Assembly (NCBI GenBank): GCA_965242725.1
Contig: CBDESZ010000014.1
Span: 1-30,247 of the forward strand
Reading direction: 5' to 3'
Length of the DNA stretch: 30,247 bases
DNA from: Alkalispirochaeta sp.
GTDB lineage: Bacteria > Spirochaetota > Spirochaetia > DSM-27196 > Alkalispirochaetaceae
The notes below the pieces were generated by a model. The model did no database searches, was not told the origin of the DNA, and was given only the letters and a program-made list of their open reading frames with translations. Positions 16,816 through 21,453 of this stretch are shown one piece after another (within the stretch, counting starts at the first letter, position 1; every line of letters starts with the position of its first letter). The position numbers and the translations under genes are program-made.

Positions 16816-17523
16816 CTACTGGAGACGGAAGGTGACGCTGATGAGGGTCGTATCGTCGACGGTAGTGTTGTTTCGCCGGGCGGGAAGAAAGGCAGTGTCC
16901 AGAACGGCGTCAACCGCAGCGGAATCGAGGCGCCTGTTGCCGGAACTTTTCGCAATTTCCACATTCAGTACGTTTCCTCTGGACGAAATATGAACCTCCA
17001 GGAGGACATCTCCCTCGATCCCGCGCCGCCGCGCCGAGTAGGGGTAGGCCGGCGCGATCGGTGACGCCGGCCGGGGAGGTTCCATAGTGCTGTCGCCGTT
17101 CCGTTCATTGGTGAGGTTCCGTTCGGGACGAGGTGATTCCGGGACGGCCGATGCATCGGGGGATCGGCGCTCCGCGGGCGATTCCGACGGCGATTCTTGG
17201 GCGGCAGGTTCCGCGGCAGGTCGCGACACCTCCGGTATCGCGGCGGGCGGCGGGGACGGGGGCGGATTTGTGACCGGTTGAGGCTCCGGCGCCGGCGACG
17301 CTACCGCAGGCGGGTCCCGCCGCGGCGGCGTCGCCACCGGTGTGGCGGGTGCGACGAGACGTACCTCCATTGAGGCGGGAGCGGACCGCACCGAGGAGCC
17401 GGTCTCCGATACGACCGAACGGTACACCCCGACACCCGCCCAAATTCCGGAGTGCAGGAAGAGCGAGGCGGCGAGGGCGAGAGCCCCTCGCCGCCGGAAC
17501 GACGTCAGTCGCCGCCGTGCCAA
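16816..17523 (-). CDS. tonB: Energy transducer TonB
   Basis: N-terminal TM with S-x3-H ('ASLFLHS'), a Pro-rich linker and a TonB C-domain ('PAYPYSARRRGIEGDVLLEVHI...SSGNRRLDSAAV...FLPA'). Starts 4 nt downstream of the receptor gene. Confidence 0.92.
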   Translation of the reverse strand: MARRRLTSFRRRGALALAASLFLHSGIWAGVGVYRSVVSETGSSVRSAPASMEVRLVAPATPVATPPRRDPPAVASPAPEPQPVTNPPPSPPPAAIPEVSRPAAEPAAQESPSESPAERRSPDASAVPESPRPERNLTNERNGDSTMEPPRPASPIAPAYPYSARRRGIEGDVLLEVHISSRGNVLNVEIAKSSGNRRLDSAAVDAVLDTAFLPARRNNTTVDDTTLISVTFRLQ

Positions 17524-17527
17524 CGGT

Positions 17528-19579
17528 TCAGTACCGGTAGGACGCCGCCACGCTGAATGAGCGCCCCGGCGCGGGGTAATAGGCGGTGGTGCCCGAAAAG
17601 GATGAGTAGAACTGAAGCGGCGCGTACCGCACGTCGAAGGCGTTCTTCAGCTCCGCCGTGACCGAGAGGTCCCCCGGTACCGCCGGCCGGAAACGTACAA
17701 AGAGATCGGTCACGGCCCAGGGGGAGATGCGATCCGTTTCATTTGCGCTGTCGCCGCCCTGATAGGCGGCGCTGCGAAAGGTCAGGGCGGGACCAAACTC
17801 GAGTCCCAGTCCCGTTCCGGGCCGGAGGGCCAGTTCCCCGTCCACGGAATGGTTGGGAACGAGGGGGACCTCCCTGCCCCTGTTGTCGCCCCCGGCAAAG
17901 GTGGCCAGGACGTAGCTGTAGCCGCCGGTGAGGCGGAAGTGCTCCGTCGGTTCGGCGGTGAGCCTGAAGTCGGCGCCGACCCGGTTGGTGGAACCGATGT
18001 TTTTGTTTGCCATCGCAGAGGCGTCATAGGCGATTTCATCCTCCATGGCGAGCCACCATACGCTTGCCTCAACCTGCGCTTTTCGCCCGGGATAGATGCC
18101 GACGCCGGCCTCGGCGGTGACGCCTCGCTCCGGGTCAAGATCATCGAGGAATTGATCGCCGAATCCCTGCACCGACGCCTGCTCGTCCAGAAGGGGATAG
18201 CGGAAGAGGGTGCCGCCGGAGAGGTAGATCTTGGCGATTTCCACGGGGCGGAACACCGCTTCCGCGTCAAAGACAAACGCCTCATGCGTCTTCCGGTCAT
18301 CAATGCCGCTCGACTCCTTTTCCGCGGTGAAGGTGCTGCGGTCGTAGCGCACCGTTCCGGCGAGGTCGAGCTCTTCCGTCACATAGACGGTCGTTGAAAG
18401 GGCCGTTCCGATTGTGTGGTGGCCGAGGATGGCTGTGTAGTCCCGAGTCTCCCGATCCGCATCGGTATACGAGCGAATCCTCTGTCGCGCCGTTGACCAG
18501 TCCACACCGATCCGGGAGCGCAGGGGGAGGGCCCCGGCATCCCAGTCCACCGTTACGGCCGGTGAAGCCGAGAATGTGTGGAGGTCGCGGTCGATGTAGC
18601 TGGAAAAGCTTGCGGTGTCCGTCTCGACGAGGCGGCCCGCGTAATTAACGGGCACGTTCACCCTGATGAGCGGTCCCGACATCCACTCCACGGCGACACC
18701 GAGATCGATCTGCTCTTCCCGCGCCTCGTCGCCGGGGTTGCCCGCCTGCGTCGGGTCGTCTTTATACGCCGCCTCGGTGAGGCTTCCCGGCATTTCATAG
18801 GAGATGTCGCCGTACCGGCCGGAAAGGCGCAGCGTGAGAGGAGCCGGCACGTCGAAATCGCTGCGAAGGGAGATGTTCCGGGCCTCGTAGGCCGAACGCT
18901 CCCGGTATCCGTCGGTGGTGTAGTGCTCCGCCGACGCGCGCAGGCGTGCCCGTTCTTCCGCAACGTCGACGGTAATGCGACTGCCCGCCTGATTGAATGA
19001 GCCGAGGCTTCCCGATGCGGTGACGGAAAAGGACGTCTCCGCCTCTTTGGTGATGATGTTGATGACGCCGCCCAGGGCGTTGTTGCCGTAGATCGCGCTT
19101 GCGCCGCCGTGGACGACCTCGATGCGGTCGATTGTGTCCATGGGGATGCCGAGCCAGTTGATGCCGGACAGGTCGGGGCTGTTGAGGCGGCGTCCGTCAA
19201 CAAGGACGAGGACGCGGCTCCCGGAACCCTCGCCGAAACCGCGCATGTCGACGGTAGCCTGGGCATCGTTGGAGTAGGAGGTGAAGGAGATGCCGCTTTC
19301 TTGCTCAAGAATCTCCACGACGCTTGATGCGCCGCTGCGGCGGATCTCCTCCGCGGTTATAACTGAGACACCGGCTCCGGTGGCGACGATGTCGGTGAGG
19401 ATACGGTCGGCGGTGACGACGACGGAGAGATCCGGTGTTGGATCGTCGGTTTGCCGGTTCTGGGCGGGCAACTGGGCGGGGGAAGCAAGTACCGCCGTCC
19501 AGAGCAGGGTGAGCGCGGCTATTGGGTACCACGCGAAATGTGACGAAGTTCGATTTACAAAAAATTTACGAAAAATCAA
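17528..19579 (-). CDS. btuB: TonB-dependent outer-membrane receptor, probably for cobalamin (BtuB-like)
   Basis: TonB-box-like 'DLSVVVTADR', plug motifs ('VSVITAEEI', 'MRGFG', 'VLVDGRR', 'IDRIEVVHGGASAIYGNNALGGVINIITK'), and C-terminal 'KNAFD...PGRSFSVAASYRY'. Start re-assigned to TTG 19579 (GAGG upstream, signal peptide follows). Substrate inferred from the riboswitches; the symbol is tentative. Confidence 0.88.
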   Translation of the reverse strand: MIFRKFFVNRTSSHFAWYPIAALTLLWTAVLASPAQLPAQNRQTDDPTPDLSVVVTADRILTDIVATGAGVSVITAEEIRRSGASSVVEILEQESGISFTSYSNDAQATVDMRGFGEGSGSRVLVLVDGRRLNSPDLSGINWLGIPMDTIDRIEVVHGGASAIYGNNALGGVINIITKEAETSFSVTASGSLGSFNQAGSRITVDVAEERARLRASAEHYTTDGYRERSAYEARNISLRSDFDVPAPLTLRLSGRYGDISYEMPGSLTEAAYKDDPTQAGNPGDEAREEQIDLGVAVEWMSGPLIRVNVPVNYAGRLVETDTASFSSYIDRDLHTFSASPAVTVDWDAGALPLRSRIGVDWSTARQRIRSYTDADRETRDYTAILGHHTIGTALSTTVYVTEELDLAGTVRYDRSTFTAEKESSGIDDRKTHEAFVFDAEAVFRPVEIAKIYLSGGTLFRYPLLDEQASVQGFGDQFLDDLDPERGVTAEAGVGIYPGRKAQVEASVWWLAMEDEIAYDASAMANKNIGSTNRVGADFRLTAEPTEHFRLTGGYSYVLATFAGGDNRGREVPLVPNHSVDGELALRPGTGLGLEFGPALTFRSAAYQGGDSANETDRISPWAVTDLFVRFRPAVPGDLSVTAELKNAFDVRYAPLQFYSSFSGTTAYYPAPGRSFSVAASYRY

Positions 19580-19589
19580 TTGTGGATTT

Positions 19590-19785
19590 CCTCTTGTGTT
19601 CGTGAGAGTACGACCGTCATGCGCGGTGCGCCCGGTCGTCTTGCGGGAGAATCGTCTTCTGGCTGACGGATACTCGACGCTGCGCCTTCCCGCCGCGGGC
19701 GGCAGTGGCATGTGGGCATCTCTCATCCGATTACAGCGGCACGTCCGCACCCGATTTGCACGGGTTTCCGTTATTCTTCCGCTCC
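19590..19785 (-). promoter_or_regulatory. Second (variant) cobalamin riboswitch, adjacent to the receptor RBS
   Basis: Minus strand: GCGGAAGAATAACGGAA-ACCCG TGCAAAT CGGGT-GCGG ACGTG CCGC-TGTAA...GCCACTG...CGGGAAGGC...AGCCAGAAGACGATTCTCCCGC. A downstream hairpin CTCT-CACGAACACA-AGAG overlaps the SD. Confidence 0.8.
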
Positions 19786-19829
19786 ATCTTGTCTGTATGT
19801 GTGTTCGTTCTCGAAAAGGAATCGTGGCG

Positions 19830-19958
19830 TTACCGTCCCGGGGCGACCTCCCTCCCTTCGGATGCGGCGCGGTTGGAAGCGGCGCGAATGCGCGGCACGA
19901 TACCTGTGAGTTGTGCGAAAGGGTATGGATGGTGAACGATAGCTATCGTCCGGGGCAC
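19830..19958 (-). CDS. Putative 42-aa upstream ORF/leader peptide between the two riboswitches
   Basis: GGAGG lies 5 nt before GTG 19958. Reads MPRTIAIVHHPYPFAQLTGIVPRIRAASNRAASEGREVAPGR*. No recognisable family. Confidence 0.3.
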   Translation of the reverse strand: MPRTIAIVHHPYPFAQLTGIVPRIRAASNRAASEGREVAPGR

Positions 19959-20125
19959 GCCTTCCTCCGAGGCCGTACATGGTTTGCAGACGGGCAGGTC
20001 TCCTGACTTACGGTTCTACGTCTGCAGGCGCCTTCCCGTGCGGTGGCGTATGCCTGCATCCTCACCGAATACAGTAGCGGGGACTGTCCCGGACTCTCAC
20101 CGGGTTCCCTTCACCTCGTCCGGAT
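19959..20125 (-). promoter_or_regulatory. Cobalamin (AdoCbl) riboswitch, first copy
   Basis: Minus strand: AGGTGAAGGGAA-CCCGG TGAGAGT CCGGG-ACAGTCCCCGCTACTGTA...GCCACCG..CGGGAAGGC...AAGTCAGGAGACCTGCC (B12 box), then the hairpin GCCT-CGGAGGA-AGGC. Confidence 0.93.
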
Positions 20126-20140
20126 GTTACGGATGTATTG

Positions 20141-20169
20141 ATGGTAGCAGGGGGAGATCGGTCCGTCAA
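20141..20169 (-). promoter_or_regulatory. sigma70 promoter for the riboswitch-receptor-tonB transcript
   Basis: TTGACG(20169-64)-17 nt-TACCAT(20146-41) with an extended -10 TG. Predicted +1 is just 5' of riboswitch 1. Confidence 0.75.
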
Positions 20170-20170
20170 C

Positions 20171-20226
20171 GCGGCGGTGGGAGTCGGCGGTGGGTGTCGG
20201 CTGTTGGCGTCGGCTGATGGCGTCGG
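20171..20226. repeat. Degenerate 13-bp tandem repeat (about 4.3 copies)
   Basis: GCGGCGGTGGGAG / TCGGCGGTGGGTG / TCGGCTGTTGGCG / TCGGCTGATGGCG / TCGG. Confidence 0.65.
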
Positions 20227-20268
20227 GGTCAGGTACCGGCGCGCGCCCTCTGCCGACACAGCCATGTG

Positions 20269-20297
20269 TTGGCGCGGTCGGCCATACCGTTCATAAT
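20269..20297 (+). promoter_or_regulatory. Putative sigma70 promoter for the btuFCD-like operon
   Basis: TTGGCG(20269-74)-17 nt-CATAAT(20292-97), then GGAGGGAG SD and ATG at 20314. Confidence 0.55.
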
Positions 20298-20313
20298 CGC
20301 GGAGGGAGATTGT

Positions 20314-21453
20314 ATGACGTTCCGGAAATGCACATACGCCGTTCTCATCGTCGCGATGGCTCTCGGACCCGTCGCAGCAGCGGTGAGTCAGGAGTTCTCG
20401 ACGTCGTTATCCATCGACGATGAATGTGAACCGCTGACGGTGGTGACCGTTACAGATGCCTGGCCGGGGGCGGAACCGTTGCGGTACGCCTTTGTTTCGG
20501 CGGGTTCGGCGGTGGGCCGGGCGGCGGCTCCTTCCCCCGCGCTGGCGGATGCATTTGATGAAGTCATTTCCGTTCCCCTGGAACGGGTTATCTCCCTCTC
20601 GTCAACGGCGATACCCCATATCCGTGATCTTGGTATGGCGGACCGACTCGTCGGTGTGGACCGCGGGGACCATATCTATGATGAGGATATTCACCGTGCG
20701 GTGGAATCGGGGCGGATCGTCGAGGTTGGTTCCGGGGGGACGCTGAATCTGGAACGAGTTGTCGCCGCCCGGCCCGATGTCGTTCTCACCTCGGCGATGG
20801 GGAGTGACGATCCGACGCTGCGGCGGCTGAAGGCCGCCGGTATTCCCGTCATCGTCCTTGCGGACTGGCGGGAGCAGTCTCCCCTGGGTCGCGCGGAGTG
20901 GATCCGTTTTTTTGGGGTGCTCTTTGACCGGACGGCACAGGGGGACGCCCTGTTTGCGGAACGGGTGACGTCGTACCGCCGTATTGCCGGGGTTGCTCGC
21001 GACCTCCCGCCGGACGAGCGGCCGACGATTGTTGCCAACGCGCCGTGGCAGGGTACGTGGCCCGTACCGGGGGGCGACAGCTATGTGGCCACCCTCTTTC
21101 ATGACGCCGGCGGACGCTATCTCTGGGCGGAAACATCGGGAACGGGGTCCCGGTTTCTCGATCTCGAGTCGGTTCTTCAACGGGCGGTACACGCCGAGTT
21201 CTGGTTGCACCTCAATACGGGGTGGGAGTCCCGGGCCGATGCCCGCAATCTCGACGAGCGGCTCACCCTGTTCCAGGCGTACCGGGAGGGACGCATGTAC
21301 CACTACTCCCGAAGGGTACGCCCCTGGGGAGCCAACGATTTCTGGGAGTCCGGCGCGGCGCGGCCAGATCTCGTCCTGGCAGATCTTCTTCACATCCTGC
21401 ATCCCCGGCTGCTGCCGGAACATGAGCTCATCTTCTATCGGAGTCTCCCGTGA
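20314..21453 (+). CDS. btuF: ABC transporter substrate-binding protein, cobalamin/iron-siderophore family (BtuF-like)
   Basis: Signal peptide from ATG 20314. Motifs 'PLERVISLSST', 'LVGVD', 'NLERVVAARPDVVL', 'EQSPLGRAEWIRFFG', 'DFWESGAARPDLVLADL'. B12 specificity inferred from context. Confidence 0.85.
   Translation: MTFRKCTYAVLIVAMALGPVAAAVSQEFSTSLSIDDECEPLTVVTVTDAWPGAEPLRYAFVSAGSAVGRAAAPSPALADAFDEVISVPLERVISLSSTAIPHIRDLGMADRLVGVDRGDHIYDEDIHRAVESGRIVEVGSGGTLNLERVVAARPDVVLTSAMGSDDPTLRRLKAAGIPVIVLADWREQSPLGRAEWIRFFGVLFDRTAQGDALFAERVTSYRRIAGVARDLPPDERPTIVANAPWQGTWPVPGGDSYVATLFHDAGGRYLWAETSGTGSRFLDLESVLQRAVHAEFWLHLNTGWESRADARNLDERLTLFQAYREGRMYHYSRRVRPWGANDFWESGAARPDLVLADLLHILHPRLLPEHELIFYRSLP

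Follow-up and report, generated by a model that had tools for sequence, protein, structure and literature searches.

A cobalamin riboswitch without P2 and with a compensatory C-G pair in P3, downstream copy of a tandem in the leader of a BtuB-like receptor gene of Alkalispirochaeta sp.

We analysed a window of 30,247 nt, which is one contig of a 4.34-Mb genome (91.8% complete) of Alkalispirochaeta sp. In the whole genome, the Rfam cobalamin riboswitch model RF00174 gave two matches only, both in the window, on the minus strand and upstream of a gene for a TonB-dependent, BtuB-like receptor and of a tonB gene. The receptor gene (17528..19579, minus strand) was translated into 683 aa from a TTG start at 19579 and carries the Pfam Plug and beta-barrel domains. 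The N terminus read from this TTG is signal-peptide-like, and the next in-frame ATG, GTG or TTG lies beyond its hydrophobic stretch. The same reading frame stays open upstream through the second riboswitch as far as a GTG at 19750 (19750-19580, minus strand), so that automatic gene prediction may wrongly include the riboswitch in the gene. The tonB gene (16816..17523, minus strand; Pfam TonB_C) comes 5 nt after the receptor gene and is probably co-transcribed with it. Divergently oriented on the plus strand there is a gene for a BtuF-like binding protein (20314..21453, likely start ATG 20314; Pfam Peripla_BP_2), with no cobalamin switch on its own strand in the whole-genome RF00174 search, and FecCD and ABC genes (Pfam FecCD, ABC_tran) come after it. 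Between 21512 and 25205 of the plus strand, with ORF frames considered as called, one ORF of 721 aa combines FecCD and ABC-ATPase matches, and the 415-aa ORF that follows has no Pfam match.

The tonB and btuF/ABC neighbourhood suggests B12 as the substrate of the receptor, and the second riboswitch lies upstream of B12-related genes, namely the TonB receptor and tonB, with btuF/ABC divergent. A search of genome contigs seeded with the receptor protein recovered one locus only, 69% identical. The genome holds four B12-binding-domain matches and a methylmalonyl-CoA mutase; CobS and CbiC were not found in it. This suggests salvage, the incompleteness of the genome keeping the absence short of proof, and the Alkalispirochaeta-like organism is a probable B12 salvager.

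We call the two riboswitches, in the direction of transcription, copy 1 and copy 2. The promoter scan of 19400-20500 gave two sites on both strands together (shuffle mean 0.4) and only one on the minus strand, a sigma-70-like TTGACG-17-TACCAT (20141..20169) just upstream of copy 1, where relatives have a comparable -35/-10 spacing. As this single minus-strand match lies in front of copy 1, both switches are probably on one transcript. No intrinsic terminator was found in 19400-20500, hence none between the two switches; Rho is encoded in the genome.

Copy 1 (19977..20133, minus strand; RF00174, 89.6 bits) has the consensus G-C pair in P3, no P2 and a 6-nt L5. Its P13 (19959..19973, minus strand) carries GGAGG in a 7-nt loop, and a GTG comes directly after P13, 5 nt past the GGAGG; this GTG opens a possible upstream ORF of 42 codons between the switches (19830..19958, minus strand), stopping before copy 2. 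A GTG, TTG or ATG follows the P13 of copy 1 in 12 of 13 copy-1 rows, with unrelated peptides. We rejected a conserved upstream ORF for this reason, considering also that one row of 13 is without a start and that pairing in the stem may be what conserves the codon. Both tandem and single loci have a CUCC/GGAG hairpin after copy 1 (L004, L006, L007, L008, L009, L010); it covers the receptor Shine-Dalgarno sequence (SD) in L009, and no gene comes after it in the tandem loci.

Copy 2 (19643..19782, minus strand) was delimited by Rfam and by the pair counts of a 29-orthologue alignment. Its RF00174 score, 69.9 bits over 19769-19654 (E 1.6e-15) against a gathering score of 31.5, places it in the cobalamin family, which was the alignment check proposed in the initial annotation of this DNA; the motifs quoted there were all found in place on the minus strand. 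Precisely, copy 2 is made of P1 (arms located as motifs at 19782-19773 and 19652-19643), an AA bulge replacing P2, a 2-bp P3, P4 (19765-19749), a 2-bp P5, P6, a full P7-P12 extension and the B12 box. The AA bulge (19772-19771) and the 5′ side of P3 (C19770, G19769) occupy 19769..19772 according to the alignment and the motif reading, within or next to the located motif ACGGAA (19771-19766). The B12 box (19653..19664; Rfam and alignment) supplies C19654 and G19653 as the 3′ side of P3, and P5 with its loop (19738..19746; Rfam alignment) carries L5, ACGUG at 19744-19740, with which the aptamer takes part in the kissing loop. Among the other located motifs, GCCACUG starts at 19709 and GGGAAGGC ends at 19684. 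The four-way junction P3-P6 is present, with the B12 box providing the 3′ sides of P6 and P3, the latter of 2 bp.

The initial annotation had described P3 as changed from GG/CC to CG/CG. The flip of the middle pair stands, C19770-G19653 in place of the consensus G-C, with the inner G-C retained; the outer A-U of the consensus has become A opposite A and no longer pairs, so that P3 has 2 bp only and is followed by the AA bulge and then by P1. Copy 2 shares with the RF00174 family (clan CL00101) the P3-P6 junction, the P4 T-loop, the B12 box and the btuB context. It differs in the C-G pair and in the lost A-U, and the model matched it over positions 47-167 only, positions 1-46 and 168-189 (P1, P2 and the changed outer P3 pairs) being dropped. 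A 4-bp P5 (GCGG/CCGC), also proposed, was discarded: it would use J4/5 and P6 bases, and both Rfam and published alignments give a 2-bp GG/CC closing the ACGUG loop.

That neither aptamer has room for P2 was correctly noted, the space being a 2-nt bulge in both (GA in copy 1, AA in copy 2). In copy 2 and its orthologues the AA bulge is found in 30/30 rows; the P2 loop-stem-loop module of Cbl-I is therefore missing, and in its place there is a short J1/3 such as that of Cbl-IIa and Cbl-IIb. The P6 extension is of the long Cbl-I kind (P7-P12, with the J11/10 adenosines in GCCACUG...GGGAAGGC) and not the small one of Cbl-IIa and Cbl-IIb, and its helices are paired in 97-99% of the 29-orthologue alignment.

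As assembled, P1 of copy 2 has 9 of 10 pairs. The contigs of two sequencing runs of one sample (depth 2-4, possibly the source of the assembly) are one base longer within the C run on the 3′ side of P1 (19644-19647), possibly a one-base assembly error or a strain difference; P1 forms with or without it, and these contigs match the window otherwise, the 10-nt L13 described below included. The fold z-score of copy 2 is -0.58 and, considering secondary-structure energy alone, the P3 pair probability is ~0.04. Folding energy does not predict a 2-bp P3, and the structure of copy 2 hence rests on comparison.

For this comparison we searched for orthologues with patterns over P4-P6, which gave 17 genome loci and 9 metagenome loci, as well as matches in 20 of the 401 genomes of the class. 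The alignment consisted of 29 rows, after removal of duplicates and of four truncated loci; L293, with a cut 5′ end, was excluded. On these rows 98.3% of the cells are paired in the copy-2 structure and 14 of 40 pairs show two-sided change, a level reached in 0/500 shuffles, while slid controls gave 34-44% pairing; the covarying helices are P1, P4, P6 and P7. The covariation check suggested in the initial annotation thus supported its structure, with the caution that kinship among the rows, which are not independent, inflates such tests. As P4, P5 and L5 were within the search patterns, we considered their invariance as no evidence. The 3′ G of the middle P3 pair was in none of the patterns, and the C-G pair is found in 29/29 orthologues. 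Two loci (L317:1475-1636 and L318:1394-1555, in G132 and G109) keep the copy-2 core and P13 and have lost the P8-P12 extension, becoming class-II-like; L317 has no Rfam match.

In the swap test we scanned the genome contigs by the 3′ half of the aptamer only, with a G after the B12 box, and read the 5′ side afterwards. At least 116 loci were obtained, of which 33 were unparsed (29 with a looser parser), many of them apparently chance matches in genes or cut loci; Rfam, run on 20 loci (15 parsed, 5 unparsed), scored 18/20 above its cut-off. Among the matches listed, selected for the 3′ G, the 5′ base is C in 81/83 parsed loci and in 82/87 with the looser parser. Together with the 29/29 orthologues and the covarying helices, this agrees with the earlier claim that the paired substitutions are under selection. 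P2 is absent in 81/83 of the parsed loci, in the sense that P1 pairs best with no more than 4 nt inserted, against 17/76 loci with the consensus 3′ C (a rough heuristic). L5 is 5 nt long in 83/83 C-G loci against 40/83 consensus-3′-C switches, again among the matches listed. The 80 titles include Gemmatimonadota, Desulfobacterota, Spirochaetota, Kiritimatiellia, Planctomycetota, Nitrospiraceae and others.

An unselected sample came from the same scan minus the last base, which covers only switches with exactly that motif (at least 118 loci; 32 unparsed, 22 with the looser parser). Among the matches listed, the 97 parsed loci had 7 C-G, 81 G-C, 4 A-U and 5 mismatched pairs, and the stricter parser gave C-G in 7/87. 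At ~7% and over many phyla, the variant is not as unusual as it had been taken to be: judging from these sequences, the swap is compensatory, tied to P2 loss and a minority form. Covariation of P3 as such has long been known, according to the part of PMC2258182 consulted. A second P2-less spirochaete lineage (L037, L038, L039, L041, L043, L045, L046) has A-U pairs in P3 (AAAGGAA with AGACUUU), a third state of the P3 pair.

Downstream from P1, the additional hairpin seen in the initial annotation is present as a linker before P13 (19610..19639, minus strand; -15.5 kcal/mol). The orthologues have it in 30/30 rows (-5.9 to -18.5 kcal/mol, a count made without a shuffle control), its position kept and its sequences unrelated. 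Pairing of its 3′ arm with the B12 box was disfavoured at -9.0 kcal/mol, the hairpin having -15.5 and P1/P3 -12.5 kcal/mol.

P13 (CUCU/AGAG, 19591..19608, minus strand; -1.9 kcal/mol) has 4 bp and a 10-nt loop starting with CACG, complementary to L5, and is the sole one of the 29 rows outside a 7-nt register. CUCUCACG, which supplies the CACG of L13 for the CGUG of L5, is invariant in 29/29 rows and lay outside every search pattern. Four kissing pairs can hence be drawn between L5 and L13 in 29/29 rows, the L13 side not being in the patterns, and docking of the two loops is predicted; the fifth pair is broken in copy 2 and in its closest relative (G007). The 10-nt L13 may have come from a deletion between two CACG repeats such as those of G007, but a global alignment places an 11-nt gap away from these repeats. 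Over the C-G loci from all bacteria, a kissing partner was found under a strict rule in 19/83, compared with 3.5 for shuffled sequences and 4.7 for swapped L5, and none in the other 64/83; matched loop changes include CGCG/CGCG, CGUG/CACG, UGCG/CGCA and CCCG/CGGG.

The SD of the receptor, AGAGGA (19589..19594, minus strand; GAGG at 19593-19590), overlaps the 3′ arm of P13 and lies 9-10 nt before TTG 19579; a 16S 3′ end with CCUCC is present in the genome. The TTG start and the overlap put forward in the initial annotation are plausible, an SD inside P13 being shared by the window and six further orthologue rows. In G007 the SD lies ~20 nt past P13, and it is further down in most stand-alone rows too; direct SD overlap is hence not conserved in the genus. 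In the ligand-free ensemble, forcing P13 costs 1.45 kcal/mol, open and P13-closed folds being ~1.5 kcal/mol apart, and the P13 5′ arm can instead pair with 19730-19720. This balance shifts with the limits chosen for the folded piece (P13-like fraction from 0.72 to 0.15), and the candidate anti-P13 duplex ranges from -0.6 to -13.5 kcal/mol over the orthologues, weak or absent in many.

As regards the tandem, the stretch of copy 1 and its P13 (20133-19959, minus strand) matches the switch directly before a BtuF homologue in G001 (L005:956-1130), and this homologue is 49% identical to the divergent BtuF of the window; the btuB leader may have received this switch from btuF by inversion or recruitment. 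The copy-2 type stands without an upstream switch in 21 of 29 rows, the other 8 being tandem, to which a cut one in G002 is added. Rfam gave exactly one match in 19 of 20 stand-alone copy-2-type loci and none in the other. Nearly all copy-2-type rows precede the same receptor family; in one Marispirochaeta row the receptor that follows is more distantly related. On a midpoint-rooted tree of 31 receptor N-terminal halves (L292, L294, L299 and L318 absent), seven tandem rows, three copy-1-only rows and one row with a third type of switch form a group of 11 (support 89/100), in which the copy-1-only relatives G015, G011 and G027 nest among the tandem rows; 17 stand-alone rows lie outside. We infer, as the simplest history, that copy 2 is the old btuB switch, that copy 1 was recruited upstream from btuF and that copy 2 was later lost in some lineages.

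A pseudo-cooperative tandem would place two aptamers, each with an expression platform of its own, on one transcript; the leader has one promoter match upstream of copy 1 and two P13 hairpins, with no terminator for copy 1. As in tandem AdoCbl riboswitches, of which 26 doublets are counted in the consulted part of PMC9481103 and which make up less than 1% of leaders in that of PMC2258182, two complete switches for one ligand precede one ORF. The differences are that no intrinsic terminator stands between the copies and that a btuF-type and then a btuB-type lineage follow each other, instead of a duplication.

Compared with class I switches (Cbl-I; T. tengcongensis 4GMA and S. thermophilum 4GXY, as described in the available part of PMC7367189), copy 2 has the same long P6 extension, J11/10 and J6/3 adenosines and L5-L13 kiss, and it differs in the absent P2 module. 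With class IIb (Cbl-IIb) it shares the short J1/3 instead of P2; the P6 extension is small in Cbl-IIb and long in copy 2, the short form being found in the orthologues L317 and L318. The B. subtilis yvrC/btuF hybrid, in the same part of PMC7367189, likewise mixes class I and class II peripheral parts, although in the opposite way, with P2 and a short P6 extension where copy 2 has no P2 and a long one. In the alignment of PMC9600662 (supplement file 1, the portion of that work consulted), 39/39 rows have P2 and the G-C middle pair of P3.

By comparison of sequences, the form to which copy 2 belongs is a subtype with a class-I-like long P6 extension, a 2-nt bulge for P2, C-G instead of G-C as the middle pair of P3 and an L5 of 5 nt. 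No description of a P2-less C-G subtype was found in the literature searched, whose coverage was partial, with subscription papers mostly outside it. Vitreschak 2003 and Nahvi 2004 reportedly treated the P2/Add-I hairpin as optional already, in which case the novelty of the P2-less form would be lower. A P2-less example with a long extension was not found in the available parts of PMC11124144 and PMC11260477. Tentatively, and with low confidence, we suggest that this form, which occurs in many little-studied phyla, is a cobalamin riboswitch subtype in its own right. It would mirror the B. subtilis hybrid and might be an intermediate between classes I and II, two orthologues having gone further by losing the extension.

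Our preferred reading, to which we assign a probability of roughly 70%, is that copy 2 functions as a cobalamin riboswitch and belongs to a compact subtype of wide occurrence, and that it most likely binds adenosylcobalamin and shuts off translation of the btuB-tonB mRNA. Its helices, its C-G pair and its L5/L13 complementarity are established by comparison. In solved or tested switches, L5 docks on L13 once the ligand is bound and P13 is thereby held, according to the parts consulted of PMC7367189 and PMC5028336. By analogy, adenosylcobalamin would stabilise the four-way junction of copy 2 and dock L5 (CGUG) onto L13 (CACG), the linker hairpin bringing P13 near the aptamer. The docked loops would hold the weak P13, whose 3′ arm would then cover the SD of TTG 19579. 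With the ligand absent, P13 would open and ribosomes load, possibly aided by pairing of the P13 5′ arm and loop with the P7/P8 5′ strand (19730-19720). Arranged in tandem, copy 1 and copy 2 should repress more sharply or more deeply; as there is no intrinsic terminator, control by copy 1 through Rho-dependent termination or through the upstream ORF is a guess.

A second reading is that the P2-less C-G subtype has another affinity or cobamide preference (e.g. methyl or hydroxo forms, or other lower ligands), so that the tandem reads two corrinoid inputs. P3 lines the ligand pocket (PMC7367189), class II switches owe their selectivity to the P1/P3 junction (PMC6158498) and swaps of P1 or P2 altered corrinoid selectivity in chimeras (PMC9600662), as far as the consulted parts of these papers go; moreover, the C-G pair, the missing P2 and the 5-nt L5 travel together among the matches listed, the form is in 0/39 rows of the available PMC9600662 alignment and the P8-P12 extension is also lost in two orthologues. 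However, it is the stacking of J11/10 on J6/3 adenosines that opens the pocket in class I, with P2 having no major part (PMC7367189, same part), and copy 2 keeps the J11/10 AA and the J6/3 adenosines, while the five-nucleotide J1/3 turn of class IIa would not fit into its 2-nt bulge. Copy 1 has the same adenosines and is without P2 as well, hence ordinary adenosylcobalamin sensing is favoured and the suggestion in the initial annotation that the selectivity of the two copies may differ gained no positive support from these sequences. The subtype is also usually alone, so it did not evolve as the partner of a second input. We consider a different preference unlikely.

A third reading keeps the aptamer intact and makes it poorly coupled to translation in this genome, with P13 eroded, copy 1 as the main control and copy 2 being lost. 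The P13 has the weakest register of the 29 rows, with 4 bp, a 10-nt loop and the fifth kissing pair broken, which makes weak coupling a rival to be weighed, and the copy-1-only G015, G011 and G027 sit among the tandem rows as if copy 2 had been lost repeatedly. However, copy 2 retains all its aptamer helices, an intact linker hairpin and the 4-bp kiss, and the altered P13 still has 4 bp and covers the SD, as in six other rows. The 10-nt loop is in the two-run contigs of the same sample too, hence there is no evident assembly slip. This reading, too, appears quite improbable to us. Lastly, an origin of copy 2 by local duplication of copy 1, followed by decay and with paired changes arisen by chance, for which its lower Rfam score, its partial model match and its position next to copy 1 could speak, is refuted for practical purposes, in agreement with the initial annotation, by the copy-2 type standing alone in other spirochaete families, by the orthologue covariation, by the compensation of the C-G pair among the matches listed and by the btuF lineage of copy 1, which is other than that of copy 2.

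Copy 2 is, on the strength of these comparisons, a real, selected and functional-looking switch, and a common minority variant of a known family. The locus alone means little, being a B12 switch that Rfam already detects, placed before a B12 receptor. The architecture recurs and falls outside the class I/class II scheme as worded in the consulted part of PMC7367189, and it is absent from the 39-row alignment, the portion seen of a large corrinoid-selectivity screen (PMC9600662). If the subtype is distinct and its corrinoid preference differs, the leader would join a btuF-derived and a btuB switch into a two-corrinoid sensor. In this genome a G-C copy 1 and a C-G copy 2, neither of which has P2, stand side by side as a natural pair, and the stand-alone, tandem, copy-1-only and short-extension states all occur among relatives; hence the role of P2 and of the P3 pair in selectivity, and the origin of a tandem by recruitment of a neighbouring switch, are directly testable.
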